60,464 nucleotides of DNA from Eubacteriales bacterium (GCA_045593725.1 JAZNXE010000011.1:1-60464), one strand, 5' to 3'; counted from the first letter of the stretch, positions 8,145 through 38,380 are shown. The notes: a model not told the origin generated them from the letters alone. Translations and numbers: made by a program.

Positions 8145-8173
8145 TTGAAAAAAACTCAAGAATGTGTTATAAT
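8145..8173 (+). promoter_or_regulatory. Sigma-A promoter
   Basis: TTGAAA-17-TATAAT with TG extension. Confidence 0.7.
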
Positions 8174-8215
8174 TGGAAAGAATTTTGTTTTACAAAGAGA
8201 AAGGTGATGGTCAAA

Positions 8216-9016
8216 ATGGCAAAAAAGTATAGAATAATTGACTCACACTGCCATATATATCCGGATAAAATAGCGCAAAAGGCATCTGATGCTACGGGAC
8301 ACTTTTATGATCTTCCGTCAAGTCTTGACGGAAAGATATCCACGCTTCTTGAGCGCGGAGAAAAAGCGGGAATAGATTGCTTCGTTGTACAGTCGGTTGC
8401 GACCACACCAAAGCAGGTTTCAAGCATCAACAACTTTATAGCAGAGTCGGTGGCGCAGAGCGACGGCAGATTTATCGGGCTTGGAACGCTTCATCCCGAC
8501 AGTGAGGATATGGAAGCCGATGTTAATGAAATAATCGGTCTTGGATTGAGGGGAGTGAAGATTCACCCTGATATTCAGCAGGTGAGATTAGACGACCCGC
8601 GTATGCATAAAATGTACGAGCTTTGCGAGGGCAGACTTCCTATGCTTATACATACAGGGGACTATCGATACGATAATTCAAACCCCAACCGAATGATGCC
8701 AATACTCGATAAATACCCCAATTTAACTGTTATCGGTGCTCATTTTGGAGGGTGGTCTATATGGGAGGATGCTACTGAAAAGATGTGCGGGTACAAAAAC
8801 TTTTTTGTGGACTGCTCATCATCGTTGTATGCCATGACACCCGAAAAAGCCAAGGAGCTTATTATGACATACGGAACGGATAGAGTGCTGTTTGGTACGG
8901 ACTATCCGTTGTGGACACCCGAAACCGAGATAGAAAGATTCATGCAAATAGATCTTACGGAGGAGCAGAGAGAGGAAATTTTTTCCGGTAATGCTACCAA
9001 ATTATTTCTCAAATAA
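8216..9016 (+). CDS. Amidohydrolase family (TIM-barrel metal-dependent hydrolase)
   Basis: IDSHCH, GVKIHP, IHTG, AHFGG, LFGTDYP motifs. Confidence 0.9.
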   Translation: MAKKYRIIDSHCHIYPDKIAQKASDATGHFYDLPSSLDGKISTLLERGEKAGIDCFVVQSVATTPKQVSSINNFIAESVAQSDGRFIGLGTLHPDSEDMEADVNEIIGLGLRGVKIHPDIQQVRLDDPRMHKMYELCEGRLPMLIHTGDYRYDNSNPNRMMPILDKYPNLTVIGAHFGGWSIWEDATEKMCGYKNFFVDCSSSLYAMTPEKAKELIMTYGTDRVLFGTDYPLWTPETEIERFMQIDLTEEQREEIFSGNATKLFLK

Positions 9017-9045
9017 TAGAAATAGTTCTTATGTGAGGTACTAAA

Positions 9046-9477
9046 ATGTATTTTGATGATCTTGAAATAGGTATGACGGTAGAGATTTCACCCACCGTTA
9101 TAGAAAAAGAAAAAATGGTGGATTTTGCTCGAATGTATGATAATATCCCCCTGCACACAGACGAAGAATATGCAAAAAGCTCTCCCTTTGGACAGCTGAT
9201 TGCCCCAGGTGTTATGTCTTTTGTGTCTGTATGGGCAAAATACCTTGAGGTGGATTTTTTCGGCAGGGAGCTGCTTGCGGGGAAATCCACAAAAATAGAG
9301 TGGCTCAAGCCTGTATTTGCCGAGGATGTCTTGGCAGGGAAGGCAACCGTTACGAATTTAGTAAAAAGAAATGAAAAAAACGGGTTGGTTGAAATTTCTA
9401 TCGAAGCCTACAACCAAAACGGAGAACTTGTTCTTACCAATATTACCGAGGCTATTGTAAAACGCAGACAGATATAA
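9046..9477 (+). CDS. MaoC-family (hotdog) acyl-CoA dehydratase
   Basis: MYFDDLEIG...FA..YDNIPLHTDEEYAK.SPFGQLIAPG...WLKPVFAED. Confidence 0.88.
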   Translation: MYFDDLEIGMTVEISPTVIEKEKMVDFARMYDNIPLHTDEEYAKSSPFGQLIAPGVMSFVSVWAKYLEVDFFGRELLAGKSTKIEWLKPVFAEDVLAGKATVTNLVKRNEKNGLVEISIEAYNQNGELVLTNITEAIVKRRQI

Positions 9478-9485
9478 ACCTAATA

Positions 9486-9514
9486 AGGGACTGCATCTAA
9501 ATGACGCAGTCCCT
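9486..9514. terminator. Bidirectional terminator between convergent genes
   Basis: AGGGACTGC...GCAGTCCCT inverted repeat. Confidence 0.7.
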
Positions 9515-9535
9515 CTTCAATTTTTTTATTAACGG

Positions 9536-12046
9536 TTATTTTTTCGGAGAAGCAGTATCTGCTCCGTCGCCAACGAGTCCGAGGCGCTCCGCTGCTTCCT
9601 GCCGCATTTTGTATTTGAGAATTTTGCCTGCCGCATTCATGGGAAAGCTCTCCACAAACTCGATATACTTTGGAACCTTATGACGAGCCATACTTGCCTT
9701 GATATATTCGCTCATCTCCTCAACGGTGACGCTTCCCGGCTCCTTGAGTATGATGCACGCCATAATTTCCTCGCCATATTTTTTGTCGGGGACACCGATA
9801 ACCTGAACATCCTTAGTCATCGGGTGAGTATAAATAAACTCCTCGATCTCCTTGGGGTAAATATTCTCGCCGCCGCGAATGATCATATCCTTAAGGCGTC
9901 CTGTGATCTTATAGTTTCCATTTTCGTCATAGCAAGCAAGGTCCCCAGAGTGGAGCCAACCGTCTTTATCAATAGTTTCCTTTGTGGCATCGGGCATTTT
10001 GTAGTATCCCTTCATAGTGTTATATCCCTTGGCGCAGAATTCTCCGTTCACGCCCGGACCAACCTCTTCTCCCGTTTCAGGATCGATTATCTTGCACATT
10101 ACGTGAGGGAACGCGCATCCTACCGTTTCGGTACGAACCTCCAGCGGATCCGTCCAGGAGCTCATAGTATTGCCGGGGGCGCACTCGGTCTGTCCATATA
10201 CGCTAACAATACCCGTCATATTCATCTCGTCGGGACGTGCCGCACGTCTCATAAGCTCGGGGGGACATCCTGCTCCCGCCATAATTCCGGTTCTCATATA
10301 TGAGAAGTCCGTGCTGCGGTAGTTCGGATGATTGAACATTGCTATAAACATAGTAGGAACGCCGTTGAAGCAGGTGATCTTTTCTTGGTTAATACAAGCA
10401 AGAGAAGACTTCGCGGAGAAATACGGCATTGGGCACATAGTCGTACCGTGGGTCATTGATGCGGTCATAGACAGTGTCATTCCAAAGCAATGGAACATTG
10501 GAACCTGTATCATCATTCTGTCCGCCGTGGAGAGTCCCATTCGGTCTCCGATACATTTTCCGTTGTTTACTACGTTGTAGTGTGTGAGCATAACTCCCTT
10601 TGGGAAGCCTGTGGTACCCGATGTGTATTGCATATTGCAAACGTCGCTGGGCTTTACGGCGGCAGCCATTCGGGCTACCTGCTCGCGGCTGACAAGCTTA
10701 TATCTATCCATAGCCTCGTCAAAGGTAAGACAGCCCTCCTGCTTGAATCCAACTGTGATAACGTTGCGAAGGAAGGGAAGCTTCTTTGCGTGGAGAGGCT
10801 CTCCCGCAACAGTGTTTTTTAACTCGGGACAGATAGTGTTGATAATTTCCTTGTAATTGGAGTCAAGACAGCTTTCTATCATAACGAGAGTATGAGTGTC
10901 GGACTGGCGGAGCAGATATTCTGCCTCGTGAATCTTATAAGCAGTATTGACCGTAACCAGAACAGCGCCTATCTTGGTCGTTGCCCAGAAGGTGATATAC
11001 CAAGCGGGAAGGTTAGTTGCCCAGATAGCCACCTTAGAGCCTGCCTTTACGCCCAGAGAAACGAGAGCGCGGGCAAAACGGTCCACATCCTCGCGGAACT
11101 GTGAGTAGGTACGGGTATAATCAAGAGTTGTGTACTTAAAGCAGTATTGATCAGGAAATTCATCTGCTACTCTGTCAAGCACCTTGGAAAAGGTAAGATC
11201 GATAAGCTCATCCTTCTTCCAAATGTACTGTCCCGATCCGTCATGGTTGAAATAAAGGCTCTTTTTCATATCCCTGGTGGAATGGAAATGGGACATATAA
11301 TTCACGAAATGAGGGAAGATAATCTCGGGATCCTGAAGATCGGGAAGCCACTCGGGCTTCCATTCCAGCGAGATAAATGCATCGTAATTTACAGACGAGA
11401 GGGCGCGCATTACATCCTCTATTGGCATAGTACCCTCACCTATAAGCTGATATACGCCGTTATCGTCGGAGTCGCGTACGTGAACGTGAGCGATATATGC
11501 GCCGAGATTTTTTATTGTCTGATCACCCGATTCACCGTTATCTCTGTACGGGTGATGAACGTCCCACAGAGCCGCCAGATTATCACTGGCAAAGCTGTCG
11601 AGTATAGCGCGAAGACGCTGGGTGTCTGCATAAATTCCACTTGTTTTTATTAAGATGCTTACGTTGTTTTCTGCTGCTACCGGCAAAATCTCCTTGAGCG
11701 CGGAATATACCGCAGACTCATTTTCCTTTAAGGCGCAGGTTACAACGTAGGGAACTCTCGCATTATGAGCTATTTCAATCAGATTCCTGAGGCTTGATAC
11801 CGCATTTTCATCGGAGGAGATATCCAGAGAGGTATCGAAGCAGGGAATAGATATGCCCTTTTCTCTAAGTTGACGAACTGTTGCGGCGGTATTGTACTTG
11901 TGGAATGGACCGCCCTTTTCCATTAACGGATCAAATTTGGTAAGGTTATATACCTCCACGCCCGAGAATCCCATATCGATGGCGACATCGAGCATTTCAT
12001 CAAAGGAAAGATCAGGCCATCCTCTTGTGGAAAATGAAAGCTTCAT
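9536..12046 (-). CDS. Fusion: sugar phosphate isomerase/epimerase-like TIM barrel + acyl-CoA synthetase (AMP-binding)
   Basis: N-terminal MKLSFST..GFSGVE, WDVHH, HVHVRD, SLEW; C-terminal YTSGTTGFPKG, YGQTE, GWLHSGD, GRLKDMIIRGGENIYP, GKILK. Confidence 0.9.
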   Translation of the reverse strand: MKLSFSTRGWPDLSFDEMLDVAIDMGFSGVEVYNLTKFDPLMEKGGPFHKYNTAATVRQLREKGISIPCFDTSLDISSDENAVSSLRNLIEIAHNARVPYVVTCALKENESAVYSALKEILPVAAENNVSILIKTSGIYADTQRLRAILDSFASDNLAALWDVHHPYRDNGESGDQTIKNLGAYIAHVHVRDSDDNGVYQLIGEGTMPIEDVMRALSSVNYDAFISLEWKPEWLPDLQDPEIIFPHFVNYMSHFHSTRDMKKSLYFNHDGSGQYIWKKDELIDLTFSKVLDRVADEFPDQYCFKYTTLDYTRTYSQFREDVDRFARALVSLGVKAGSKVAIWATNLPAWYITFWATTKIGAVLVTVNTAYKIHEAEYLLRQSDTHTLVMIESCLDSNYKEIINTICPELKNTVAGEPLHAKKLPFLRNVITVGFKQEGCLTFDEAMDRYKLVSREQVARMAAAVKPSDVCNMQYTSGTTGFPKGVMLTHYNVVNNGKCIGDRMGLSTADRMMIQVPMFHCFGMTLSMTASMTHGTTMCPMPYFSAKSSLACINQEKITCFNGVPTMFIAMFNHPNYRSTDFSYMRTGIMAGAGCPPELMRRAARPDEMNMTGIVSVYGQTECAPGNTMSSWTDPLEVRTETVGCAFPHVMCKIIDPETGEEVGPGVNGEFCAKGYNTMKGYYKMPDATKETIDKDGWLHSGDLACYDENGNYKITGRLKDMIIRGGENIYPKEIEEFIYTHPMTKDVQVIGVPDKKYGEEIMACIILKEPGSVTVEEMSEYIKASMARHKVPKYIEFVESFPMNAAGKILKYKMRQEAAERLGLVGDGADTASPKK

Positions 12047-13446
12047 TCGATTTCCTCCTCATAGACTATCTTGTTAAGAGCGCTCAAATAAGCCTGTATT
12101 CCCGCGCCAACGATATCGGTGGAGATACCTATGCCCGAATATACCTTATCTCCCGCGCGAAGCTTAACAACGGTTTGCCCCATAGCTTCGCGACCTTCTG
12201 TTACTGCCTGAAGCTGAAAGTCATCAAGCTCATAGTGGCAGCCGGTAATCTTTTCGATAGCCTGAAACGCCGCGTCGATAGAGCCATCGCCAATGTAAAC
12301 ACCCTCCACGGTGCTGTCATTCTTCACGAGCTTTATGTGAGCTGTTGCCGATATAGTATTTCCCGACGTGATAACGTAGGTGTCCAGCTTGTAGGTGGAG
12401 GGGACCTGCATAGCCGAGGATGCTACTATGGCATCAAGCTCCTTTAAGGTCACCTTTTCCTTTTTCTCCGCAATCTGCTTGAAGGCGGTATAAACTGTCT
12501 GCGTGTCTTCGCCGGAGAGGTCGTATCCGAGTCTTACCGTAGCTGCCGCAACAGCCTCCTCGGTGTCATGCAGAGTGAGGAATATTTCATTATCCTTGGA
12601 TTCAACGGCAGTGTTTTGAACCTTGCCCGTATGGTAGAGCCTATCTATTTGTGAAATGATTTTGCTAAGTTGATTTGCTTTTACGTCAATACAGGTGTTC
12701 AAAGAATCTGCCTTTGCGGTAAGTATTCGGGTGATGTTTTCGAGAGATACCTCTGAGCCTGAATGGCATACGGCGCGAATCTGCTCTGCGCCCTGAGCGG
12801 TTGCCATAATTGCACATGCATCAGCCATAGCGATAGTGTTGGCGCAGCTAACTCCAAGGATTACCTTGTCAAGGCTGGGTATAGAATCATACTGAGCTTT
12901 AATAAACTCAGCAAATTCGACGGGAAGCATTGTTCCTGCCGTGTCACAAAGAGTTACGGTGGTAGCGCCCGCGCTGATAGCGGTTTCTACCGCTTTAGCG
13001 AGAAAATCACTTTCGCTGCGGGTGGCATCCTCCGCGACGAACTCTACGTCTGGGCAGAGCGCGCGACACGCGGTAACGGTTCGGCTGATAGCTTCAAGCA
13101 TGGCGTCGGGCTTTTTGTGGAAAAGATATTCTATTTGTACAGCGCTTGTAGAAGCGCAGACCTGAAGGCGGGGATTTTTGGCATTTTTTAAAGCCGCCCA
13201 GGTTCTTTCAATACTTTCGTCATCCACTAATTCTACAGGAACAGCGATACGGCTGTTGTTAACTGCGGATGCGATAGATTTTATCAAAAGGGAGTCAACA
13301 CGCAGGTCGGTTATACCGTCAAGCTCAATCAAATCCACACCGATTTTGTCCAGGAGCTTTGTAAGCTCTATTTTTTCTTTAAATGTGAGGCGCAGATCCT
13401 CGGAGGTCTGCTTCATTGTCGCGTCACTGATTACAATCTTTCTCAT
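12043..13446 (-). CDS. 2-isopropylmalate synthase-like protein with degenerate catalytic site and intact LeuA regulatory domain
   Basis: LeuA-like EDATRS, DTAG and C-terminal GDGSIDA/AVTEGREAMG/STDIV; DTTLRDGEQ is replaced by DATMKQTS and HCHND by SCANT. Confidence 0.82.
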   Translation of the reverse strand: MRKIVISDATMKQTSEDLRLTFKEKIELTKLLDKIGVDLIELDGITDLRVDSLLIKSIASAVNNSRIAVPVELVDDESIERTWAALKNAKNPRLQVCASTSAVQIEYLFHKKPDAMLEAISRTVTACRALCPDVEFVAEDATRSESDFLAKAVETAISAGATTVTLCDTAGTMLPVEFAEFIKAQYDSIPSLDKVILGVSCANTIAMADACAIMATAQGAEQIRAVCHSGSEVSLENITRILTAKADSLNTCIDVKANQLSKIISQIDRLYHTGKVQNTAVESKDNEIFLTLHDTEEAVAAATVRLGYDLSGEDTQTVYTAFKQIAEKKEKVTLKELDAIVASSAMQVPSTYKLDTYVITSGNTISATAHIKLVKNDSTVEGVYIGDGSIDAAFQAIEKITGCHYELDDFQLQAVTEGREAMGQTVVKLRAGDKVYSGIGISTDIVGAGIQAYLSALNKIVYEEEIE

Positions 13447-13467
13447 GATTCGTTGTCTCCTTGTCTA

Positions 13468-13735
13468 AATAAAAAAATCCCCAAGCCGAGAAACGGCTTC
13501 AGGGACGAATTAATTCGCGGTACCACCCTGATTATACCCTAAAAAAGGGAAATCACTCAAAAACCCCATTCAGGGTCTTACCTTGTAACGGAGGTTGCCG
13601 TGTCCCATTACTTGCTTTCGCTTTGATGGGACCGACTCGGGAAGGAGTATGCCCAAACCGCGCGTGTCGGCTCACACCAAACGCCGATTCTCTGGTACGC
13701 TTCAATAAGGGCAAGATTTCCGTCATTGTCTTTCA
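13468..13735 (-). promoter_or_regulatory. T-box riboswitch, predicted Leu (CUC) specifier
   Basis: Minus strand: GA motif GACAATGACGGAA/TTCCCGAGTC, AGAGA...GGTGTGAG apical motifs, specifier CTC (plus-strand 13645-13647), T-box AGGGTGGTACCGCG...CGTCCCT, terminator with U tract. Confidence 0.88.
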
Positions 13736-13883
13736 TATAATAAATTATAACGATGAGTATATTTAACCACCAAATCAGCGCTTTGTCAAGTAGAAAATAT
13801 TAAAAAGCACCAATTTTGACAATAATGTACAAAAAATATCTCGTATTTTTTGAAATTTTGTGCACTTTTTAATAAAAAAATAT

Positions 13884-13912
13884 TTGACTTTTTTGCGCAA
13901 AAATGATAAAAT
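13884..13912 (+). promoter_or_regulatory. Sigma-A promoter of the Ile T-box operon
   Basis: TTGACT-17-TAAAAT with TG extension. Confidence 0.75.
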
Positions 13913-13932
13913 TAATCATAGCATTAAAAATA

Positions 13933-14186
13933 AAGACTGTGACGAAGACGGTACCGGTACAATAGGCACACAGAGAGTCGGCGTTTGGTGCGAGCCGATT
14001 GCAAAAAACCGATCTACCCATCACTTCCGAGTCGGAAATTCGAGCTTTGAGTTAGAGTTTCACGTTTCCCGCGTTAAGGGCAAGGACTTATAGGTCCTAA
14101 GTGGCGGTTTTCCGTAATTTGAGTGGTTCCGCGGGTATTTTGCACTCGTCTCAGAATTTTGATTCCTGAGGCGTTTTTGTTTTTTT
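13933..14186 (+). promoter_or_regulatory. T-box riboswitch, predicted Ile (AUC) specifier
   Basis: GACTGTGACGAAG/CTTCCGAGTC stem I base, AGAGA...GGTGCGAG, specifier ATC at 14020-14022, T-box GAGTGGTTCCGCG (14121-14133)...CGTCTC, terminator with U tract. Confidence 0.9.
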
Positions 14187-14202
14187 GAAGGAGGTTTTAC
14201 TT

Positions 14203-16470
14203 ATGTCAAATCAATCTGATGTTAAACAGCTTGAAAAGGTAGCGTTGCGCATACACGAGATGCGCCAGATTATGGGCTATACGATTTCGCAGATGGCAGA
14301 GTTGACTGATGTTTCTGAGGAAATGTATTGCTCGTATGAGTCGGGTAGCATAGATCTGCCCTTCACGTTTATACATAAATGCGCGAAGGCTTACGGCATA
14401 GAGATTACAGACCTTTTGGAGGGACATAGCGCAAAGCTTTCAGGATATACCGTTACTCGAAAGGGCAAGGGAATTACTACAGCTGAGGAGGACGGTATTA
14501 CTATTCAGGCTATCGCTTCTCAGTTCCGAAAAAAGCTTGCTGCTCCTTATTGGGTGACCTATCCTTATTCCGATGAGCTCCAGAAGCTCCCCATTCACAC
14601 GGTAACCCATTCTGGTCAGGAATTTGATATGGTAATCAATGGTTCCCTGCGTTTCCGCATTGGAGATCACGAGGAGATTTTGCGTGAGGGAGATAGTATT
14701 TTCTTCAATTCCTCCACTCCCCACGGTATGATTGCCATAGATAATAAAGATTGCGTTTTTCTTTCGGTCGTTATGGCAAGTGATGCTACCGACCAGCCTA
14801 TGTATCTTGGCTCCGACCTGCAGAATGCAGTGAGAGAGCCTCTCCTGTGCGAAAAGTTTATCCAGACTCAGGAGGACGAAAACGGAGTTCTTCTCGATGT
14901 CAATTACATTGACGAGGATAAATATAACTTTGCTTTTGATACGGTTGATGAGATCGCACGCAGAGAGCCGAATAAATTGGCTATGATCCACGTTGCCAAC
15001 GATATGACCGCGAGAAGATTCACCTTTAAGGATATCAAGGATGCTTCATCGCAGGCAGCAAATTACTTTAAATCGCTTGGAATCAAGAAGGGCGACCGTG
15101 TGCTTTTGGTGCTTAAGCGTCACTATCAGTTCTGGTTTGCGATTCTTGGTCTTCATAAGATAGGCGCGATAGCTATTCCAGCAACCAATCAGCTTCTTGA
15201 ACACGATTTTACCTATCGTTTTCAGGCGGCAGGCGTCAGCGCGGTGCTTTGTACGGCTGACGGAGATACGGCGCATCAGATAGAGTTGGCTGAGAACTCA
15301 TTGGGAATCTCGCTGACTAAGGTTCTCGTTGGAGGAAAGAGAGACGGATGGCGCGACTTTGATGCTGAATATTCACTTTTCAGCCGTCGATACCTTCGCG
15401 CCGAGGATGCTCCTTGCGGAAACGATCCTATGCTGATGCTCTTTACCTCTGGAACAACTGGTTATCCCAAGATGGCTGCGCACTCATATAAATATGCGCT
15501 TGGTCATTTCGTTACCGCAAAATATTGGCATTTGTGCGAAAAGGACGGACTCCATTTCACCATTTCAGAGACCGGTTGGGGTAAAGCCCTGTGGGGTAAG
15601 CTGTACGGTCAATGGCTTTGTGAGTGTGCGGTATTCGTGTACGACTTCGACCGATTCGATGCGGAGAAGATACTTCCGCTCTTTAAACAATACAATATAA
15701 CCACCTTCTGTGCGCCGCCTACCATGTACAGGATGCTTATCAAACAGGATATTAGCCGATTTGATCTTTCCTCCATTCGCCACGCGACTACTGCGGGTGA
15801 GGCGCTTAACCCCGAGGTTTTCTATCAGTTTGAGAAGGCTACGGGACTTCGTATAGCCGAGGGCTTCGGTCAGACCGAGATGACGCTCGGTATCGGAAAC
15901 CTGCGCGGCACACAGATCAAGCCTGGCGCAATGGGTAAGCCTGTTCCCGGATATGGAATAGACCTTGCTGATGCCGACGGAAATCCCGTTGCCGACGGTG
16001 TGAACGGAGAGATTGTTATTCGCACCGAGCCTAAGACGAGCTGTGGCGTATTCCTTGGATATTATCTAAATGAAGAAGCCACAAAGGGCGTATGGCACGA
16101 CGGTATGTATCACACGGGAGATCTTGCATGGCGTGATGAGGACGGATATTACTGGTACGTTGGACGCGCTGATGACGTTATCAAGTCATCGGGATACCGT
16201 ATAGGTCCGTTTGAAATTGAATCTACTATTATGGAGCTTCCTTACGTCCTTGAGTGCGGAGTATGCGCCGCTCCCGATGAGGTAAGAGGTCAGGTCGTTA
16301 AGGCTTGTATCGTTCTCGTTCCAGGGACTGAGGAGAGCGAGGAGCTTAAGAAGGATATTCAGAATTACGTAAAGCTGCACACGGCTCCTTACAAATACCC
16401 GAGAATAGTAGAATTCCGCAAGGAATTACCCAAGACTATCAGCGGTAAGATTATCCGCAACAAGCTTTAA
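14203..16470 (+). CDS. Fusion: XRE helix-turn-helix + cupin + short/medium-chain acyl-CoA synthetase (copy 1)
   Basis: N-terminal XRE HTH, cupin HSGQEF...GDSIFFNSSTPHGM, then FTSGTTGYPK, GFGQTE, YHTGD, GRADDVIKSSGYRIGPFE, PKTISGKI. Confidence 0.9.
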   Translation: MSNQSDVKQLEKVALRIHEMRQIMGYTISQMAELTDVSEEMYCSYESGSIDLPFTFIHKCAKAYGIEITDLLEGHSAKLSGYTVTRKGKGITTAEEDGITIQAIASQFRKKLAAPYWVTYPYSDELQKLPIHTVTHSGQEFDMVINGSLRFRIGDHEEILREGDSIFFNSSTPHGMIAIDNKDCVFLSVVMASDATDQPMYLGSDLQNAVREPLLCEKFIQTQEDENGVLLDVNYIDEDKYNFAFDTVDEIARREPNKLAMIHVANDMTARRFTFKDIKDASSQAANYFKSLGIKKGDRVLLVLKRHYQFWFAILGLHKIGAIAIPATNQLLEHDFTYRFQAAGVSAVLCTADGDTAHQIELAENSLGISLTKVLVGGKRDGWRDFDAEYSLFSRRYLRAEDAPCGNDPMLMLFTSGTTGYPKMAAHSYKYALGHFVTAKYWHLCEKDGLHFTISETGWGKALWGKLYGQWLCECAVFVYDFDRFDAEKILPLFKQYNITTFCAPPTMYRMLIKQDISRFDLSSIRHATTAGEALNPEVFYQFEKATGLRIAEGFGQTEMTLGIGNLRGTQIKPGAMGKPVPGYGIDLADADGNPVADGVNGEIVIRTEPKTSCGVFLGYYLNEEATKGVWHDGMYHTGDLAWRDEDGYYWYVGRADDVIKSSGYRIGPFEIESTIMELPYVLECGVCAAPDEVRGQVVKACIVLVPGTEESEELKKDIQNYVKLHTAPYKYPRIVEFRKELPKTISGKIIRNKL

Positions 16471-16499
16471 TACGTATCCTTGAAGAAAAGAGGTGTAGT

Positions 16500-18776
16500 A
16501 TGGAACAACCAATAGACATAAAAATAAAACAGATCGCCGACCGTATTCGAGAGTTGCGCCTTATTTCCGGACTGTCTATTGCCGATATGGCTGAGCGTAC
16601 GGGAATCAGTGAGAGCGAATACGAGGAATGCGAGAATGGAAACAGAAATCTTAGTATTGCCTTTCTGTACCATTGCGTGCTTATTTTCGGCGTCGATATG
16701 AGCGATATTCTTGAGGGTAAAAGCCCCAAGCTTCGCTCGTATGCCCTCACAAGAAGAGGAGAGGGGCAGAGAATAGAGGAAGCTCACAATATGGTTGGAT
16801 ACAACCTTGCCTCGGGCTTCCGCAACCGTATCGCGCTTCCTCTCTATATGGAGATGAAATACCACGAGGGTGCGGAAAACGAGAACATAGAGCAGGTTAC
16901 ACACGAGGGACAAGAGTGTGATATCGTAATAAACGGTCGGATGAAGATCCAGATCGGCGAGCATACCGAGATACTCAATCCCGGTGATTGTATATACTAT
17001 GATTCGGGTACTCCTCATGGAATGATAGCTATAGGCGGAGAGGATTGCTCGTTCTACGCGATTGTGCTTCGCAATCAGGCAGCAAGAGAGGGTGAGCAGG
17101 CTGCCGTGTCTTCAACGGCAACCCAGCGACGTGACGAGGATAAACAGCAGAGAATTTATCAGGATTTTATTACCACAACCGAGAAGGATGGTATTCTTAC
17201 CGAAATTTCCTTTAAGAATGAGGATAAATTCAACTTTGCCTTTGACGTTGTTGATGCGCTTGGTACTCGTAAGCCCGATAAGCTTGCAATGCTTTATGTG
17301 GGAGAGGATGGTACAGAGCGTAGATTTACCTTCCAGGATATGAAAAGGGAATCTGCAAGAGTTGCAAACTACTTTACTTCTATCGGAATAAAGAAGGGTG
17401 ACCGCGTGATGCTGGTGCTTAAGCGTCACTACCAGTTCTGGTTCTCTATCCTTGCTTTGAACAAGCTTGGCGCAATTGCAATTCCCGCACCTAATCAGCT
17501 CTTGGAGAAGGATTTTGAGTATAGATTTAATGCAGGCGGTATTAAGGCGATCGTTTGTACGGCTGACGGTGATGTGGCAGATTCCGTAGATGCGGCTTCA
17601 GCCAAGTGCCCCGGACTTGAGCACAAAATCATTGTGGGAGGCATCCGCGATGGTTGGCGTAGCTTTGACGACGAATACGGAATATACAGCAGCCACTATT
17701 TCCGCACCGAGAATTCTCCTTGCGGAGATGACCCCATGCTGATGTTCTTTACGTCCGGAACCTCGGGATACCCCAAGATCGCGGCGCATAACCATAAGTA
17801 TCCTCTCGGACACTTTATTACGGCAAAGTATTGGCATCAGGTAAACCCCGACGGATTGCACCTTACGATATCCGACACGGGCTGGGCAAAGGCTATGTGG
17901 GGTAAGCTGTACGGTCAATGGCTGTGCGAGGCAGCGACCTTCGTATATGATTTCGACCGTTTTGATGCCGAGCATATCCTCCCGCTCTTCAAGAAATATA
18001 ATATAACCACCTTCTGCGCGCCTCCTACGATGTACAGAATGCTCATTAAGCAGGATCTGTCGCGCTTTGATCTTTCCAGCATAGAGCACGCATCTACCGC
18101 AGGTGAGGCGCTCAATCCTGAGGTGTTCCGTCAGTTTGAGAACCACACGGGACTTAAGATAATGGAAGGCTTCGGTCAGTCCGAGAGTACGCTTATTATA
18201 GGAAATCTTGCGGGCGGAAGCCACAAGATAGGTTCTATGGGTAAGCCTACGCCTCTTTACGACGTGCATTTGCTTAGTCCTGACGGCGACGAGGTAGAGG
18301 CGGGAGAGAGCGGAGAGATATGTATCAATATCTCTGACGGTCTGCCCTGCGGTCTTGCTTACGCTTATGAGGGGAACCCCCAGATTACAGCCGAGACTTG
18401 GAAGGACGGCTTTTATCACACGGGAGATCTTGCGTGGTGCGACGAGGACGGCTTCCTTTGGTATGTGGGACGCGCGGACGACGTTATTAAATCCTCGGGA
18501 TACAGGATTGGTCCGTTTGAGATTGAGAACGTAATTATGGAGCTTCCCTACGTTCTTGAGTGTGGAGTTTCGGCAGCCCCTGACGAGATTCGCGGACAGG
18601 TCGTTAAAGCAAGTATAGTTCTTGTCAAGGGATATGAGGGAACCGACGAGCTTAAGAAGGAAATTCAGAACTACGTTAAATCTCGTACGGCACCCTATAA
18701 GTATCCGAGAATAGTAGAATTCCACGAGAGCTTGCCGAAAACGACCAGTGGAAAAATTATAAGAAAAAAGCTTTAA
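16500..18776 (+). CDS. Fusion: XRE helix-turn-helix + cupin + acyl-CoA synthetase (copy 2, paralog)
   Basis: Same architecture and long identical stretches with 14203..16470 (e.g. WGKLYGQWLCE, FCAPPTMYRMLIKQD). Confidence 0.9.
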   Translation: MEQPIDIKIKQIADRIRELRLISGLSIADMAERTGISESEYEECENGNRNLSIAFLYHCVLIFGVDMSDILEGKSPKLRSYALTRRGEGQRIEEAHNMVGYNLASGFRNRIALPLYMEMKYHEGAENENIEQVTHEGQECDIVINGRMKIQIGEHTEILNPGDCIYYDSGTPHGMIAIGGEDCSFYAIVLRNQAAREGEQAAVSSTATQRRDEDKQQRIYQDFITTTEKDGILTEISFKNEDKFNFAFDVVDALGTRKPDKLAMLYVGEDGTERRFTFQDMKRESARVANYFTSIGIKKGDRVMLVLKRHYQFWFSILALNKLGAIAIPAPNQLLEKDFEYRFNAGGIKAIVCTADGDVADSVDAASAKCPGLEHKIIVGGIRDGWRSFDDEYGIYSSHYFRTENSPCGDDPMLMFFTSGTSGYPKIAAHNHKYPLGHFITAKYWHQVNPDGLHLTISDTGWAKAMWGKLYGQWLCEAATFVYDFDRFDAEHILPLFKKYNITTFCAPPTMYRMLIKQDLSRFDLSSIEHASTAGEALNPEVFRQFENHTGLKIMEGFGQSESTLIIGNLAGGSHKIGSMGKPTPLYDVHLLSPDGDEVEAGESGEICINISDGLPCGLAYAYEGNPQITAETWKDGFYHTGDLAWCDEDGFLWYVGRADDVIKSSGYRIGPFEIENVIMELPYVLECGVSAAPDEIRGQVVKASIVLVKGYEGTDELKKEIQNYVKSRTAPYKYPRIVEFHESLPKTTSGKIIRKKL

Positions 18777-18792
18777 TAGCGAGATTGTAAAT

Positions 18793-19461
18793 ATGGAACA
18801 TAAAAGATTAACTCTTTTTGCGGGGCATTATGGCAGCGGCAAAACCAATATTGCCGTTAATTACGCTATGCTTTTGGCAGAGGAAGGGAAGAAGGTCTGT
18901 ATTGCAGATCTGGATATTGTAAATCCGTATTTCAGAACCAAGGACAGCGAATGCGAATTGAGAGAAAAGGGAATTACTCTTATTTCTCCTCAATACGCAA
19001 ATACTAACGTAGATCTCCCTGCGCTTCCCGCAGAGAGCTACAGGTTGGTTCAGGATAGGTCCATATTCGGTATTATTGACGTAGGCGGCGACGATAGAGG
19101 CGCCTATGCCCTCGGTAGATTTTCGGATGCTATAAAGGCAGAGGGGAACTACCGTATGGCTTTCGTCATCAATAGGTACAGACCGCTTACATCTACCGTA
19201 GAGGATACGGTGGAAATTATGAGAGAAATCGAGGCGGCATGCGGAATTCGTTTTAACTGTATCGTCAACAACTCCAACATAGGCACTGAAACAACCAAAG
19301 AAATTCTTCTTGATTCGGTTGAGTTTGCCCAAGGAGTCAGTCGTGTGACAGGACTGCCGATATGGTTCCATACCGCTGAGAAAAATATAGTTGAGGGAAT
19401 TTCGGAAATTCCGATAATGCCCCTGACACTTCAAAAGAAATACTTTGATTTACCAAACTGA
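18793..19461 (+). CDS. P-loop NTPase associated with 2-oxoacid oxidoreductase operons
   Basis: GHYGSGKT Walker A, DLDIVNPYFR, DVGGD. Confidence 0.8.
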   Translation: MEHKRLTLFAGHYGSGKTNIAVNYAMLLAEEGKKVCIADLDIVNPYFRTKDSECELREKGITLISPQYANTNVDLPALPAESYRLVQDRSIFGIIDVGGDDRGAYALGRFSDAIKAEGNYRMAFVINRYRPLTSTVEDTVEIMREIEAACGIRFNCIVNNSNIGTETTKEILLDSVEFAQGVSRVTGLPIWFHTAEKNIVEGISEIPIMPLTLQKKYFDLPN

Positions 19462-19511
19462 CAGAATAAAAATATTTGTTAGCTGGCGGTCATTGAAATA
19501 GGAGGAAAAGT

Positions 19512-19718
19512 ATGGCTAAAGTAACCTTTAATGCGGATATGTGTAAGGGCTGTGGCTTGTGTGTTGACGCATGTCCCAAGAAATGTCTGGCGATTGCGCA
19601 GGATAAGCTTAACCCTAAGGGATATTCCCCCGCATTTATGCAAGAGCAGGAAAAATGTATTGGCTGCGCATTTTGTGCGACTATGTGTCCCGATTGCATT
19701 ATAACAGTAGAAAAGTAA
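19512..19718 (+). CDS. 2[4Fe-4S] ferredoxin, delta subunit of 2-oxoacid:ferredoxin oxidoreductase
   Basis: CKGCGLCVDACP and CIGCAFCATMCP. Confidence 0.92.
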   Translation: MAKVTFNADMCKGCGLCVDACPKKCLAIAQDKLNPKGYSPAFMQEQEKCIGCAFCATMCPDCIITVEK

Positions 19719-19739
19719 GATTAGTGAATGGAGAAAATT

Positions 19740-20801
19740 ATGGCAGAAAGAATTTTAATGAAGGGTAATGAGGCGATTGCAGAGGCTGCTATCAGAGCGG
19801 GCTGCCGTCACTATTTTGGATATCCTATTACACCTCAAACCGAGATTGCCGCATACATGGCAAAGAAAATGCCTAAGATCGGCGGAGTATTTCTTCAGGC
19901 AGAGAGCGAGATCGCCTCTATCAATATGGTATATGGAGCGGCGGCGGCAGGAATGCGTGTTATGACCTCATCTTCCAGCCCCGGAATTTCACTCAAGGCA
20001 GAAGGACTAAGTTACATAGCAGGCTCTGACGTTCCCGCGCTTGTCGTTAACGTACAGCGCGGAGGTCCCGGACTTGGAGGAATCCAGCCTTCGCAGTCTG
20101 ACTATTTTCAGGCTACAAAGGGTGGCGGTCACGGTGACTACCGTATGATCGTTCTTGCACCTGCTTCGGTTCAGGAAATGGCAAGTCTTACTATCAAGGG
20201 CTTCGATCTTGCGGATAAGTATTGTATTACCTCTATGATTCTCGCAGACGGAACCATCGGTCAGATGATGGAGCCAATCACCTTTGAGGATACTGAGCCA
20301 ACGGTGTATGAGAAGCCTTGGGCACTTACAGGTACCGAGTGCAAGCGTCCCCACAATATAGTAAATTCGCTTTATCTTAAGCCTGATGAGCTTGAGAAGA
20401 AGAACTTCGAACGCTTCGAGAAGTATGCTGAAATAGAGAAGAACGAGGCTATGTGGGAGGAATATATGATGGACGATGCAGAGATTTGTGTCGTTGCATT
20501 CGGCATTGCTTCCAGAATAGCTAAAAATGCAGTAGCAGAGGCGCGCAAAGCAGGAATTAAGGTTGGTCTTATTCGTCCTATCACGCTTTGGCCCTTCCCA
20601 ACCGCAGCACTCAGAGCGGCGGCAGATAAGGTTAAGTCATTTATCTGTGTAGAGCTTAGTATGGGTCAGATGATTGAGGACGTAAAGCTTGCTACCGAAA
20701 GCAAGCGACCTGTTGCGCTTTGCAACCGCACGGGCGGTATGATTCCTACTCCCGATGAGGTACTTGCTGCAATACATAAGGCAGAGAAAGGAGAATTCTG
20801 A
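19740..20801 (+). CDS. vorB: 2-oxoisovalerate (3-methyl-2-oxobutanoate):ferredoxin oxidoreductase alpha-type subunit
   Basis: [42 protein letters not shown]. Confidence 0.85.
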
Positions 20802-20803
20802 TT

Positions 20804-21562
20804 ATGGCAATAGTATTTGAAAAACCGAAAGCATTGACAGATGCGCCGTTTCATTACTGTCCCGGATGTCCTCACGGTATAATTCACCGTTTGGTAGCCG
20901 AGGCTATGGACGAGCTTGGCATTGAAGGCAAGGCAATAGGAGTAGCGCCTGTTGGCTGCGCGGTTATGGCATACGATTATTTCGGCTGTGATATGATAGA
21001 AGCTCCTCACGGAAGAGCGCCTGCTGTTGCTACGGGCATTAAGCGTTGCCGTCCTGACAATATCGTATTTACCTACCAGGGTGACGGTGACCTTGCGTCG
21101 ATCGGTATGGCTGAAACGGTTCATTCGGCAGCACGAAACGAGAATATTACCGTTATTTTCGTAAATAACGCGATCTACGGTATGACAGGTGGACAGATGG
21201 CTCCTACCAGCCTTCCGGGGCAGGTTACCCAGACTTCTCCCTACGGACGTGACGTAAACCATTGCGGATGGCCTATAAAGGTTAGCGAGATGCTTGCGAC
21301 GCTCGAAGGACCCGCATACATAACCCGTGTTGCTGTAAATAACGTTAAGAACGTAAAAAATGCCAAGAAGGCAATCAAGAAGGCGTTCCAGAATCAGATG
21401 GAGGGTAAGGGATTCTCGTTTGTAGAGGTTGTTTCCGCTTGTCCTACCAACTGGGGAATGACTCCCAAGCAAGCGCTTGAATGGGTAGAGAGCGATATGC
21501 TTCCTTACTATCCCATAGGAGTTTATAAGGATAGATCTGAGAAGGAGGCTGCTGCAGAATGA
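20804..21562 (+). CDS. 2-oxoacid:ferredoxin oxidoreductase beta (TPP-binding) subunit
   Basis: HYCPGC, PVGC, YQGDGD...[15 protein letters not shown]. Confidence 0.92.
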
Positions 21563-22098
21563 AAACCACGGAAATTCTTATAGCGGGATTTGGCGGCCAG
21601 GGAATTCTTTTTTCAGGAAAGTTCTTGGCTTATAAGGGACTTTTAGAGGAGCTTCAGGTTTCCTGGCTTCCTTCATACGGACCTGAAATGCGCGGAGGCA
21701 CGGCAAACTGTAACGTAATTCTTTCTGATACACCCGTTGGATCACCTATTATCACAAGCCCCAACGTGCTTGTAGCCATGAATCTTCCTTCTCTTGAAAA
21801 GTACGTAGATTCGGTAATTTCAGGTGGACAGATATACGTTGATTCCTCTTTGATAGACGCAAAGGTAGAGAGAGATGACGTAGAGGTGTTCTATATTCCC
21901 GCAACTCAGATGGCAAAGGAAGAGGGAATTTCCAGCCTCGCTAATATGATTATAGTTGGACATCTTCTCGAAAATCACCCCGAGCTTTCCTTTGATGGAG
22001 TTGACGCGGTGGTAGAGAAGCTCGTCCCTGCCAAGAAGGCTGCTCTTAAAGAGCTTAATATAAAGGCTCTCAGCCTCGGAAAAAATTATAATAAGTAA
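21559..22098 (+). CDS. 2-oxoacid:ferredoxin oxidoreductase gamma subunit
   Basis: [18 protein letters not shown]. Confidence 0.92.
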
Positions 22099-22115
22099 TT
22101 TTGGAGAAAAATATT

Positions 22116-23150
22116 ATGAGTAACAAGCAGTTGGATTGGGCAAATCTTGGCTTTGGATATGTCCAGACAGATAAAAGATTTGTAGCAAACTTCAAGAACG
22201 GAGCATGGGAAGAGGGATATCTTACCGAGGATGCAACCGTTGTACTTAACGAGTGTGCAGGTGTTTTTCAGTATGCACAGACTGTATTCGAGGGCTTGAA
22301 GGCATATCGTACCGAGGACGGACGTATTGTTACCTTCCGCCCCGACCTTAACGCAAAGCGTATGGCTGACAGTGCAAGAAGACTTGAAATGCCCGCATAT
22401 CCCGAAGATAAGTTTGTTGAGGCAGTAGAGGCTGTTGTTGCGGCAAATGCTGATTTCGTTCCCCCTTATGGATCCGGCGCGACGATGTACCTTCGTCCCT
22501 TTATGTTCGGAAGCAATCAAGTTATCGGTGTAAAGCCCGCTACCGAATATCAGTTCCGTATATTTGCAACTCCCGTTGGACCTTACTTCAAGGGCGGTGT
22601 AAAGCCGCTGACTCTTCGCGTATGCGACCTTGACCGTGCGGCTCCTCGCGGAACCGGACACATAAAGGCAGGTCTTAACTATGCAATGAGCTTACACGCA
22701 ATCGTTGATGCACACAATCAGGGCTACGACGAGAATATGTACCTTGATTCCGCAACGAGAACAAAGGTAGAGGAAACCGGTGGAGCAAACTTCATATTCG
22801 TTACTAAGGACAACAAGCTGGTAACACCTAAATCGGATACTATTCTTCCTTCTATTACAAGACGCTCGCTTTGCTATGTTGCAAAGGAATATCTTGGAAT
22901 GGAGGTTGAGGAGCGAGAGGTTCTTCTTGACGAGGTTAAGGATTTTGCTGAGTGCGGACTTTGCGGTACGGCAGCGGTTATTTCTCCTGTGGGAAAGGTC
23001 GTTGATCACGGCACAGAGATATGCTTCCCCAGCGGAATGACCGAAATGGGTCCCGTTCTTAAGAAGCTGTACGATACCTTGACCGGTATCCAGATGGGAA
23101 GAATAGAAGCTCCCGAGGGTTGGATACACGAGGTTAAGATAAAAGCGTAA
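22116..23150 (+). CDS. ilvE: Branched-chain amino acid aminotransferase
   Basis: FEGLKAY, FRPDLNAKR, YLRPF, GTGHIKAGLNY, EETGGAN, GTAAVISP. Confidence 0.95.
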   Translation: MSNKQLDWANLGFGYVQTDKRFVANFKNGAWEEGYLTEDATVVLNECAGVFQYAQTVFEGLKAYRTEDGRIVTFRPDLNAKRMADSARRLEMPAYPEDKFVEAVEAVVAANADFVPPYGSGATMYLRPFMFGSNQVIGVKPATEYQFRIFATPVGPYFKGGVKPLTLRVCDLDRAAPRGTGHIKAGLNYAMSLHAIVDAHNQGYDENMYLDSATRTKVEETGGANFIFVTKDNKLVTPKSDTILPSITRRSLCYVAKEYLGMEVEEREVLLDEVKDFAECGLCGTAAVISPVGKVVDHGTEICFPSGMTEMGPVLKKLYDTLTGIQMGRIEAPEGWIHEVKIKA

Positions 23151-23191
23151 ATGATATTACCTTGCCGACCGTAATGGAATGGTGAAAAAGT

Positions 23192-23240
23192 AAAAAAGCG
23201 GACGTAAGTGAACGTTTAATTCACTTACGTCCGCTTTTTT
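23192..23240 (+). terminator. Intrinsic terminator ending the Ile T-box operon
   Basis: AAAAAAGCGGACGTAAGTGAA / TTCACTTACGTCCGCTTTTTT inverted repeat. Confidence 0.85.
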
Positions 23241-35993: not shown

Positions 35994-37121
35994 ATGACTT
36001 TTGAACACGATGATAGCTACCAGAGCGGCGTATGTATAAAGGTGGTTGGAGTAGGCGGAGGCGGTAACAATGCCGTTAACCGTATGATAGCTTCCAACGT
36101 AAGAGGTGTTGAATTTGTTTCTATCAATACCGACAGACAGGCACTTAAAAATTCGCTTGCTCCTAATCAGGTGGCAATCGGAGAGAAGATTACCAAGGGT
36201 TTTGGAGCAGGTGCCAATCCCTCCATTGGAACAAGGTCTGCCGAGGAGTCGCTTGAGGATATAAAGGCTGCTCTCGCAGGCGCCGATATGGTATTCGTTA
36301 CCGCGGGTATGGGCGGCGGAACGGGTACGGGTGCTGCTCCCGTTGTGGCTAAGATAGCTCACGATATGGATATACTTACAGTAGGTATCGTAACTAAGCC
36401 CTTCGCTTTCGAAGGAAAGAGAAGAATGGAACAGGCGCTGGCGGGAATTGAGGAGTTCAGTCAGTATGTTGATTCTCTCGTTGTTATTCCCAACGAAAGA
36501 CTTAAGCTGGTTACCGACAGCAGAATCACTCTCTTTAACGCATTCTCTGAGGCTGATGACATTCTCCGCAAGGGTGTACAGAGCATTTCCGAGCTTATCA
36601 ACGTAGAGCAGTTTATTAACCTTGACTTTGCGGACGTTACCTCTGTAATGGCTCATTCGGGTCTTGCTCACATGGGTATAGGAAGCGCTACGGGTAAGGA
36701 TAAGGCTCAGGAGGCTGCAAGTATGGCTATTGCCAGCCCCTTGCTGGAAACATCTATTAAGGGTGCTACGGGCGTTATCATAAGCTTCTCGGTTTCTCCC
36801 GATGTAGGTCTTGAGGACGTTGACCTTGCTGCTAATATGGTTACCAATGAATGCAATCCCGATGCTAACATCATATTCGGCGTTGGATTTGACGAAAACC
36901 TCGAGGACGAAATGAGAATAACCATTATAGCTACCGGCTTTACAAAGGAAACTAATGAAGCTCCTGCAAAAGAGGATTCAAAGCCTGTGGAAGAATCGGC
37001 TAAGACTGCAGCTATCGATCCTAAGGCAGAGAATGTAGAGGAGGCTGCTCCCATAAAGGTAGCTTCTCAAAAGAATTCTAACGCTCTTGACCTTGATGAC
37101 ATTCTTGGAGATTTGTTTTAA
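35994..37121 (+). CDS. ftsZ: Cell division GTPase FtsZ, copy 1
   Basis: [34 protein letters not shown]; C-terminus [11 protein letters not shown]. Confidence 0.96.
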
Positions 37122-37287: not shown

Positions 37288-38346
37288 ATGGGATTTGAAC
37301 AGTTTGACAATAATGAATATGGCGTAAACATAAAGGTTGTGGGAGTCGGCGGTGGCGGAAATAACGCTGTTAACCGAATGATTGCCTCCGAGGTTAAGGG
37401 TGTAGAGTTTATCGCCATAAATACCGATAAGCAGGCGCTGAAGAAATCGGTTGCGCCAAAGCAGCTTGCAATAGGAGAAAAGATTACTAACGGCTTTGGT
37501 GCCGGCTCTAATCCCGAGTTAGGAAAGAGAGCGGCGGACGAGGCGTACAACGATATAAAGAAGCTGCTTTCGGGCGCGGATATGGTGTTTGTTACCGCAG
37601 GAATGGGAGGCGGAACGGGTACGGGAGCTACTCCTATCGTTGCAAAGGCGGCAAGAGAGATGGATATACTTACCGTAGGTGTAGTTACAACTCCCTTTGG
37701 CTTCGAGGGCAAAAAGAGAATGCTTCAGGCAGAAGAAGGAATAAAGGAAATAAGCCAGTACGTTGACTCACTTGTTGTTATCCCCAACGAAAGACTGAAG
37801 CTGGTTGCGGATTCAAGAATTACTCTTGCTACTGCCTTTTCTGAGGCTGACGAGGTTCTTCGCAGGGGTGTTCAGAGTATTTCCGACCTTATAAACGTAC
37901 CGGGATTTATCAACATAGACTTTGCGGACGTCACCTCGGTTCTTGCTAACTCGGGTGTTGCATATATGGGTATGGGTAAGGCTACGGGTAAGGATAAGGC
38001 TCAGGAAGCGGCTATGATGGCTATATCCAGTCCCTTGCTTGAAACCTCTATAAAGGGCGCCAAGGGTGTTATCATAAGTATTTCCGCTTCTGCCGACGTA
38101 GGACTTGAGGACGTTGACCTGGCTTCTACTATGATAGCTAATGAGTGTAACTCGGACGCAAGTGTTATCTGGGGAGTTGCCTTTGACCCTGAGCTTGAGG
38201 ACGAAATGAGAATTACTATCATAGCGGCAGATTTTGAGGTTGAGGAAGAGGACGTTGAGGCTGCCATTATCGAAGCAAATTCCGAGATAAAGGAAGAGCC
38301 CGCCGCAAAGCCTGTGAACGACGATTTCTTTGACGGATTGTTTTAA
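37288..38346 (+). CDS. ftsZ: Cell division GTPase FtsZ, copy 2
   Basis: [37 protein letters not shown]; C-terminus NDDFFDGLF. Confidence 0.96.
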
Positions 38347-38349
38347 TGC

Positions 38350-38380
38350 AAAAAGTTCCCTGATTTTCAGGGAACTTTTT
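38350..38380. terminator. Bidirectional terminator
   Basis: AAAAAGTTCCCTGA-TTT-TCAGGGAACTTTTT between convergent genes. Confidence 0.85.

Follow-up and report, generated by a model that had tools for sequence, protein, structure and literature searches.

The window analysed here is a stretch of 60,464 nucleotides from Eubacteriales bacterium (GCA_045593725.1, JAZNXE010000011.1:1-60464), i.e. contig C11 of a 42-contig assembly of 1.30 Mb in total, whose completeness is rated at 97.7%. Positions 9536 to 23240 hold two divergent transcription units, each headed by a T-box leader. The unit on the minus strand (the Leu arm) encodes a LeuA-like protein, named here pseudoLeuA, and TIMlig, an acyl-CoA ligase fused to a TIM barrel. 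The unit on the plus strand (the Ile arm) encodes two further acyl-CoA ligases bearing helix-turn-helix (HTH) and cupin domains (HClig1 and HClig2), a P-loop NTPase, a four-subunit 2-oxoacid:ferredoxin oxidoreductase of the VOR type and the aminotransferase IlvE. We suggest that this locus may constitute a salvage regulon, which would make branched-chain amino acids (BCAAs) from branched-chain fatty acids.

An earlier reading of the window, made from the sequence alone (the sequence-only reading), had already listed the three ligases, the four-subunit VOR and IlvE, all of which are retained here, while pseudoLeuA, the P-loop gene and the domains fused to the ligases had escaped it, as had a Val-specific T-box which some relatives carry and the window lacks. 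Its statement that ilvBCD and leuBCD are absent from the locus is correct, as are its placement of two back-to-back T-boxes and its view of their specifiers as BCAA codons, both of which are supported by the analyses described below.

Divergent T-box leaders and their specifiers

T-boxes were called with the Rfam covariance model RF00230, which has a gathering score of 93 bits. The Leu leader (13498-13735, minus strand) scored 107.7 bits (E 7e-23 over the whole window) and has the specifier CUC at 13645-13647 (complement). The Ile leader (13930-14156, plus strand) scored 92.9 bits (E 8.8e-21), with the specifier AUC at 14020-14022, and its orthologues in five related loci reached 102-122 bits. 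The antiterminator-type cores, GGUGGUACCGCG and GAGUGGUUCCGCG, contain the UGGN bulge, and a hairpin with a U run comes after each of them. The intrinsic terminator of the Leu T-box (13471-13505, minus strand) is a hairpin followed by UUUUUUU, with a minimum free energy of -20.5 kcal/mol (z -2.3). The terminator of the Ile T-box (14147-14186, plus strand) is a hairpin followed by GUUUUUGUUUUUUU, with a minimum free energy of -12.6 kcal/mol and a z of only -1.2, and its sequence is conserved. As both leaders end in a hairpin with a U run, they are best described as transcription-attenuation switches.

To place the locus among its relatives, species-representative genomes were scanned with HClig1, which yielded 514 stretches encoding related proteins. 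Most of the best 80 loci belong to metagenome-assembled genomes (MAGs) that carry the labels Oscillospiraceae, Faecousia, Clostridia or Eubacteriales, and many were obtained from the hindgut of goat, sheep, yak, deer and buffalo. Both genes flanking the leaders were present in 68 related loci, three of which were excluded because their spacers (208, 2266 and 3220 nt) fell outside the allowed 600-1000 nt, so that the final leader alignment comprises 66 sequences, i.e. the window and 65 loci.

The Ile specifier is ATC in all 66 aligned leaders. The Leu specifier is CTG in 44 of them, CTC in 15 and CTT in 7, and this purely synonymous variation is the behaviour expected of a true specifier. Seven T-boxes were found in the genome, and the two leaders of this locus are the only ones of the Ile and Leu type. 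At the same codon position, the other five read GUC before a ValS-like gene (886 aa), UUC before a PheS-alpha-like gene, UGG before a TrpB-like gene, UGC before a CysE-like (serine acetyltransferase) gene and AAC before an AspS-like gene, where the gene names were read from N-terminal sequences with no family scan. The codon matches the downstream gene in four of these leaders (GUC, UUC, UGG and UGC), which validates the specifier position within the same genome. The T-box preceding the AspS-like gene, located on contig C32, reads a codon for Asn. The genome also contains two copies of a tRNA-Leu(GAG) gene, both ending in ACCA, which matches the UGGU of the Leu leader.

The promoter of the Leu arm (13761-13790, minus strand) consists of the -35 hexamer TTGACA, an 18-nt spacer and the -10 hexamer TTAAAT; it was read by eye and is not listed by the consensus scan. 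The promoter of the Ile arm (13884-13912, plus strand; TTGACT, 17 nt, TAAAAT, with a TG) gave 10 of 12 matches in that scan. The hexamers of both promoters are conserved in the 66-sequence alignment, and so is an A-tract upstream of the Ile-arm promoter. In the same alignment no operator for the HTH domains was recognized: the region between the promoters is poorly conserved, and the GC-cored palindromes near both of them are not conserved. Within the Ile arm, neighbouring genes are separated by anything from a 4-nt overlap to 50 nt, and internal promoter-like matches occur at chance level (22 versus 20.9 expected). The Leu-arm operon is closed by a terminator-like hairpin (9485-9515, minus strand) with a 13-pair stem just past the ligase stop codon and a weak T tail, and the Ile arm by a long palindromic terminator (23193-23239), whose 20-pair stem lies between A and T runs.

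Genes of the Ile and Leu arms

The first two genes of the Ile arm encode HClig1 (755 aa; 14203-16470, plus strand) and HClig2 (758 aa; 16500-18776, plus strand), which are 59% identical and share the domain order HTH_3, Cupin_2 and AMP-binding. The ligase domains of both align end to end with PDB entry 3ETC over residues 53-570 (605.6 bits for HClig1 and 626.5 bits for HClig2). According to PMC10455477, 3ETC is MacsMa of Methanosarcina acetivorans, whose preferred acyl substrate is 2-methylbutyrate. This resemblance fits the branched-acid ligases envisaged by the sequence-only reading. The Trp of the AKYW motif is kept in both proteins, aligned to 3ETC chain index 260, and is probably the acyl-pocket Trp259 described in PMC10455477. 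From their sequences and the regulation of their genes in relatives (see below), we infer that HClig1 is a candidate 2-methylbutyrate-CoA ligase and HClig2 a candidate isobutyrate-CoA ligase. Their N-terminal HTH-cupin module of about 235 aa is weakly similar to PuuR, and a comparison of it with PDB sequences gave no match.

The best NCBIfam model for HClig1 and HClig2 is MbcS (NF047394), a ligase which, according to PMC10026030 and PMC11167679, activates branched acids and supports branched-chain fatty acid synthesis in Staphylococcus aureus. This opens an alternative explanation, namely that, like MbcS, the ligases chiefly provide primers of branched acyl-CoA for branched-chain membrane fatty acids and are linked to amino acids only secondarily. 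However, the scores (424 and 420 bits) are about half of the equivalog cut-off of 850, and HClig1 and HClig2 appear to be relatives, not equivalogs, of both MbcS and MacsMa. Moreover, control by T-boxes for tRNA-Ile and tRNA-Leu, together with co-transcription with VOR and IlvE, points to amino-acid supply, and we consider a role chiefly in lipid synthesis very unlikely. We thus return to amino-acid salvage, to which the remaining genes of the Ile arm are relevant.

HClig2 is followed by the gene of a CbiA/ParA-like P-loop NTPase (222 aa; 18793-19461, plus strand), recognized by Pfam and carrying the Walker A motif GHYGSGKT. The predicted model of this protein (pLDDT 87) has the signal recognition particle GTPases and the ATPase-type HypB as its nearest folds (TM about 0.5-0.6). 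A NifH-like ATP-driven reductase was considered for it and rejected, since no Cys is invariant in the family alignment of 42 sequences and the fold is that of a generic SIMIBI NTPase. As a guess from the position of its gene, the protein might be an accessory or maturation factor of VOR.

The four VOR subunits are encoded next. The delta subunit (68 aa; 19512-19718, plus strand) is a 2x[4Fe-4S] ferredoxin-like protein with two CxxCxxCxxxCP motifs, CKGCGLCVDACP and CIGCAFCATMCP. It is followed by the alpha subunit, VorB (357 aa; 19728-20801, plus strand; NF005507, 550.8 bits, over the cut-off of 399), the thiamine pyrophosphate-binding beta subunit (252 aa; 20804-21562, plus strand; Pfam TPP_enzyme_C) and the gamma subunit (179 aa; 21559-22098, plus strand; Pfam POR, 105.6 bits). 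The last gene of the arm encodes a type II IlvE (349 aa; 22101-23150, plus strand), which exceeds the cut-offs of NF009897 (461.6 versus 307) and TIGR01123 (383.2 versus 250).

The leading gene of the Leu arm encodes pseudoLeuA (467 aa; 12043-13446, minus strand), in which Pfam recognizes the HMGL-like and LeuA_dimer domains, the latter (PF08502) with 103 bits. In NCBIfam the protein reached 303 bits, which is below the isopropylmalate synthase cut-off of 532 and below every other cut-off for that enzyme. Compared with LeuA of N. meningitidis (3rmj), the motif DTTLRDGEQS reads DATMK--QTS, HCHND reads SCANT, and a 4-residue gap falls at the 'gera' stretch after 'vng'. These substitutions are conserved across 51 homologues, and the regulatory domain (residues 330-467) is nearly invariant. 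As the Arg-Asp (RDGEQ) and His-x-His motifs are replaced or deleted and the score lies under the cut-off, pseudoLeuA is not a functional LeuA. Judged from these features, it is a catalytically dead but stable pseudoenzyme, and it is most plausibly a leucine-binding partner of TIMlig. The stop codon of pseudoLeuA overlaps the start of TIMlig by 4 nt, and an overlap of the same length is found in 54 of 54 loci. A complex prediction with TIMlig residues 1-265 and pseudoLeuA gave scores of 0.02 and 0.22, with the mark set at 0.32, and counts neither way.

TIMlig (836 aa; 9536-12046, minus strand) begins with a xylose-isomerase-like TIM barrel (residues ~1-260), to which an AMP-forming acyl-CoA ligase is joined, as indicated by the Pfam matches to AP_endonuc_2 (80.8 bits, cut-off 31.1) and AMP-binding (300.5 bits). 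Its best NCBIfam model, PRK12583, gave 657.6 bits, below the cut-off of 832. We regard TIMlig as a candidate isovalerate-CoA ligase on the basis of regulatory logic, i.e. the Leu switch and the pattern of one ligase per switch. Two genes on the other strand (8162-9477, plus strand) run towards TIMlig, one for an Amidohydro_2 protein of 284 aa that matched no NCBIfam model and one for a MaoC-like dehydratase of 143 aa. Homologues of the Amidohydro_2 protein (40-46% identity) are encoded beside the cluster, at either end, in 19 of 80 related loci.

The composition of the Leu arm allows for another suggestion, in which the Ile arm acts as proposed and the Leu-arm proteins convert some other precursor to a Leu precursor or serve a different Leu-linked function. 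TIMlig is without a characterised close relative, its best PDB match being 256 bits and covering the C-terminal half only. In its barrel, D162, H165, H187, H189, D192 and E228 are retained at positions that match the metal-site motifs of MJ1311 (3wqo), which argues against a mere inert linker. The genes of VOR and IlvE lie outside the Leu operon, and the adjoining Amidohydro_2 and MaoC-like genes would also suit such a function. On the other hand, the first Glu of the MJ1311 site is replaced in the barrel by K134/T135, and the genome holds neither another VOR-type enzyme nor a Leu pathway gene. A third isoacid offers the simplest account of the Leu specifier and of a divergent pairing with the VOR arm that holds in 53 of 53 loci. 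A separate function of the Leu arm is therefore unlikely in our opinion, and activation of isovalerate by TIMlig is kept as the preferred reading below.

The de novo pathway and the cluster in relatives

Profile searches of the assembly revealed neither ilvC nor ilvD. The sole Iso_dh protein, the possible LeuB, proved to be an NADP isocitrate dehydrogenase (655 bits versus a cut-off of 335), so no leuB was found. The sole aconitase-family protein, a possible LeuCD, is a 755-aa PRK11413 hydratase (1211 bits) encoded next to the isocitrate dehydrogenase gene. A functional leuA is likewise missing, pseudoLeuA being the sole LeuA_dimer protein in the genome. The sole candidate for ilvB is an acetohydroxyacid synthase-like, thiamine pyrophosphate-type gene split over two frames, which was rejected with 150 and 239 bits versus a cut-off of 538. 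It is located on contig C41 (L096:5495-7109, minus strand), comprises overlapping frames of 182 and 370 aa and adjoins the gene of a 1201-aa pyruvate:ferredoxin oxidoreductase (PFOR). The split could stem from a frameshift or from an error in the assembly, or the gene could be an ilvB in decay. The loss of ilvBCD and leuBCD, which the sequence-only reading had named as a point to check in the genome, is thus borne out for ilvC, ilvD, leuB and leuCD. Given the missing genes and the completeness of 97.7%, de novo synthesis of BCAAs appears to be beyond this organism. No BrnQ transporter was found in the assembly, and the genome contains one BPD_transp_2 permease. Its POR_N enzymes are the 1201-aa PFOR, the VOR of the locus, which is the only VOR-type enzyme, and an IorA.

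A further group of genes on contig C31 (L095:258-8964) encodes an SNF symporter, a 547-aa AMP-binding ligase, an SSF symporter, IorA (579 aa), IorB (189 aa), a PaaK-like ligase (454 aa) and a 151-aa protein with a pair of ACT domains. It may be a second acid-to-amino-acid module, the aromatic counterpart of the present locus, which would convert arylacetates to aromatic amino acids. Its ACT protein lies beside a ligase, just as pseudoLeuA lies beside TIMlig in the Leu arm. No T-box was found on contig C31.

The divergent cluster is conserved in many MAGs from gut and ruminant hindgut, in agreement with what had been expected of it. Where at least 4.8 kb of sequence is available upstream of HClig1, the pair of pseudoLeuA and TIMlig is present (53 of 53 loci), and where the downstream sequence reaches 6.2 kb or more, 48 of 49 loci contain HClig2, the P-loop gene and VorDBAC. 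All nine core genes occur in 45 of the 80 loci, most of the others being cut by contig ends. In a sample of genomes from the same order, 243 of 301 matched at E <= 1e-20, many over the full length, a count that takes in generic ligase matches.

In 21 of 63 loci the spacer between HClig1 and HClig2 is 332-500 nt long and contains a T-box core motif, with a Val codon as the specifier (GTC in 20, GTA in one). Two of these 21 were run against Rfam and gave 89.6 and 67.5 bits. In the other 42 loci the spacer is 9-282 nt long and without the core motif, and in the window it measures 29 nt and has no T-box, as in the closest relatives. The loci with three switches suggest a mapping in which the Ile switch would serve HClig1, the Val switch HClig2 and the Leu switch TIMlig. 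This lends independent support to the assignment of ligases to acids: it fits one ligase for each acid and, as in the sequence-only reading, the acids for both Ile and Val under Ile control in the window. As the Val T-box is absent in this lineage, the supply of Val would be slaved to Ile sensing, with HClig2, VOR and IlvE all under the Ile switch. One of the spacers without a core motif (282 nt, locus L064) still reads GTC in the Val-specifier column and may be a decaying remnant of a Val T-box.

Beyond the cluster, the dcw cell-division cluster starts downstream of the Ile arm. It ends in tandem FtsZ genes (35994-37121 and 37288-38346, plus strand; 375 and 352 aa), both with the Tubulin and FtsZ_C domains. 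On the opposite strand (38379-41092, minus strand), the gene of a radical-SAM protein (458 aa) overlaps that of a protein with the Orn/Lys/Arg-decarboxylase fold (459 aa).

A putative salvage regulon and its relation to known systems

The leaders with their specifiers, the identities of the genes, the synteny, the operon layout and the lack of a de novo pathway in the assembly can all be read directly from the sequence. Genes for activation, carboxylation and amination stand together in a genome whose assembly lacks the de novo route. Based on these observations, we suggest that the locus is a tRNA-gated salvage regulon, in which reductive carboxylation of isovalerate, 2-methylbutyrate and isobutyrate would lead to Leu, Ile and Val, and we estimate the probability of this explanation at roughly 75%.

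In such a regulon, an AMP-forming ligase would turn the branched acid into its acyl-CoA at the expense of ATP. The four-subunit VOR, working in reverse, would then combine the acyl-CoA, CO2 and reduced ferredoxin (for which the PFOR is a possible source) into a 2-oxoacid, which IlvE would transaminate to the amino acid. Uncharged tRNA-Ile would antiterminate the plus-strand leader and allow the synthesis of HClig1, HClig2, the P-loop protein, VOR and IlvE, and these Ile-arm enzymes would lead from 2-methylbutyrate to Ile and from isobutyrate to Val. Uncharged tRNA-Leu(GAG) would antiterminate the minus-strand leader, so that pseudoLeuA and TIMlig are made, and the isovaleryl-CoA formed would share the VOR and IlvE of the Ile arm.

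The direction of flux is suggested to be biosynthetic because of the T-box logic and the AMP-forming ligases. The opposite can be envisaged, i.e. a catabolic cluster in which IlvE and VOR oxidise BCAAs to acyl-CoAs, which are then released as branched fatty acids; both enzymes are reversible, and gut Clostridia are known to produce branched acids. However, genes behind a T-box are expressed during scarcity of the cognate amino acid. The reaction of AMP-forming ligases proceeds toward acyl-CoA, with no ATP conserved, and the locus contains neither a phosphotransacylase/kinase pair nor an ADP-forming synthetase. We therefore give a catabolic function hardly any credence and continue with the biosynthetic salvage regulon.

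Several observations weigh against this interpretation, in whole or in part. The weak point of the proposal is the Leu route: VOR and IlvE are encoded in the Ile arm alone, outside Leu control, and the route needs basal or Ile-triggered expression of the plus arm. TIMlig, as noted, has no characterised close relative and, with most of its metal-site residues retained, may carry out additional or different chemistry. HClig1 and HClig2 fall far below the MbcS cut-off, and the VOR beta (2-oxoacid:acceptor oxidoreductase beta families) and gamma subunits are below the NCBIfam cut-offs. The Ile T-box lies 0.1 bit below the gathering score of RF00230 and, among the 36 tRNAs found in the assembly, there is no tRNA-Ile gene. 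Genes for tRNA-Ala and tRNA-Asn are likewise missing among these 36; we assume that those for tRNA-Ile and tRNA-Ala probably lie in unassembled rRNA operons. More generally, in a 42-contig assembly the absence of a gene is not a proof of its loss.

The comparison with relatives adds further difficulties. A class IV aminotransferase gene (IlvE) follows VorC in 16 of 46 loci (at least 70% identity in seven, below this value in nine) and is lacking there in the other 30. Both of the Val T-boxes run against Rfam are below the gathering score, and none at the gathering threshold was found in six loci. Finally, among genomes sampled for ilvC, 12 of 30 with a strong match to the fused ligase contained it, as did 21 of 35 without such a match, 14 of the 35 having neither; the genomes were picked in list order and are kin rather than independent. 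The cluster therefore does not strictly take the place of the de novo pathway.

A more tentative proposal, which we consider doubtful, concerns a layer of control beneath the T-boxes, in which each ligase would have recruited its own ligand-sensing module. PseudoLeuA, with the leucine-binding regulatory domain of LeuA preserved, might have been exapted as a feedback sensor of TIMlig, a non-homologous entry enzyme, the HTH-cupin module might make HClig1 and HClig2 BirA-like enzymes that in addition bind DNA or respond to Ile, Val or the acids, and the P-loop protein might help VOR in the reductive direction.

If the interpretation as a salvage regulon is correct, the locus provides a complete and testable candidate gene set for the isoacid route, comprising three ligases, VOR, IlvE and the accessory proteins, with the T-box wiring showing at the RNA level for which amino acid each part is meant. 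It would imply that a bacterium with a genome of 1.3 Mb and no ilv/leu genes relies on the fermentation acids of its neighbours. This has a bearing on models of cross-feeding, on isoacid feed supplements and on the prediction of auxotrophy from MAGs; with standard pathway calls, such genomes would be classed as BCAA auxotrophs. In addition, pseudoLeuA appears to be a clean candidate for a pseudoenzyme turned into a sensor.

The need of fibre-degrading anaerobes for branched-chain volatile fatty acids, which they turn into amino acids, has been known since the 1960s. Carboxylation of isoacids was reportedly studied by Allison, Bryant and Doetsch in 1962, Allison, Bucklin and Robinson in 1966, Robinson and Allison in 1969, and Allison and Peel in 1971. 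PMC7356843 refers to such routes in rumen anaerobes, in which isoacids are carboxylated on the way to Leu, Ile and Val. The overall chemistry (a branched acid, its carboxylation and amination) is the same as that proposed here and the habitat, rumen or hindgut, is similar. However, that work consists of physiology and labelling, whereas the present locus is a gene set with tRNA-sensing control and accessory proteins, known from its sequence. No paper assigning this gene set, the T-box wiring or the accessory proteins was found in the searchable literature, outside of which most subscription journals lie. A term search of PMC2494555 gave no mention of ferredoxin, oxidoreductase or CoA ligase, and the subject of PMC11304471 is 2-oxoglutarate enzymes and not isoacids. 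Thus T-boxes, VOR, IlvE and ligases of the MacsMa/MbcS type are all of known kinds, whereas their combination in this gene set, the wiring and the accessory proteins were not found in print.

Each of these parts can be compared with its better-known counterpart. HClig1 and HClig2 differ from MacsMa and MbcS by the added N-terminal HTH and cupin module. PseudoLeuA has the DRE-TIM barrel fold signature and the LeuA_dimer domain in common with LeuA (3rmj), but its metal and substrate motifs are replaced and its gene is translationally coupled to that of an acyl-CoA ligase. VOR is used anabolically in methanogens, and the enzyme of archaea and anaerobes is made of the same four subunits (delta, alpha, beta and gamma). 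In the present locus, however, it is placed behind ligases and a P-loop NTPase gene under T-box control, which implies the reductive direction.

The closest parallel to the leaders is found in the T-boxes of aminoacyl-tRNA synthetase and ilv-leu genes in Firmicutes; the ilv-leu T-box of B. subtilis, for instance, has a Leu-CUC specifier. The specifier in Stem I, the pairing of UGGN with the tRNA acceptor end and the terminator/antiterminator switch are shared. On the other hand, the leaders described here would govern the salvage of fermentation acids instead of a de novo pathway or a synthetase, and they form a divergent pair, joined in some relatives by a third leader, one for each ligase.

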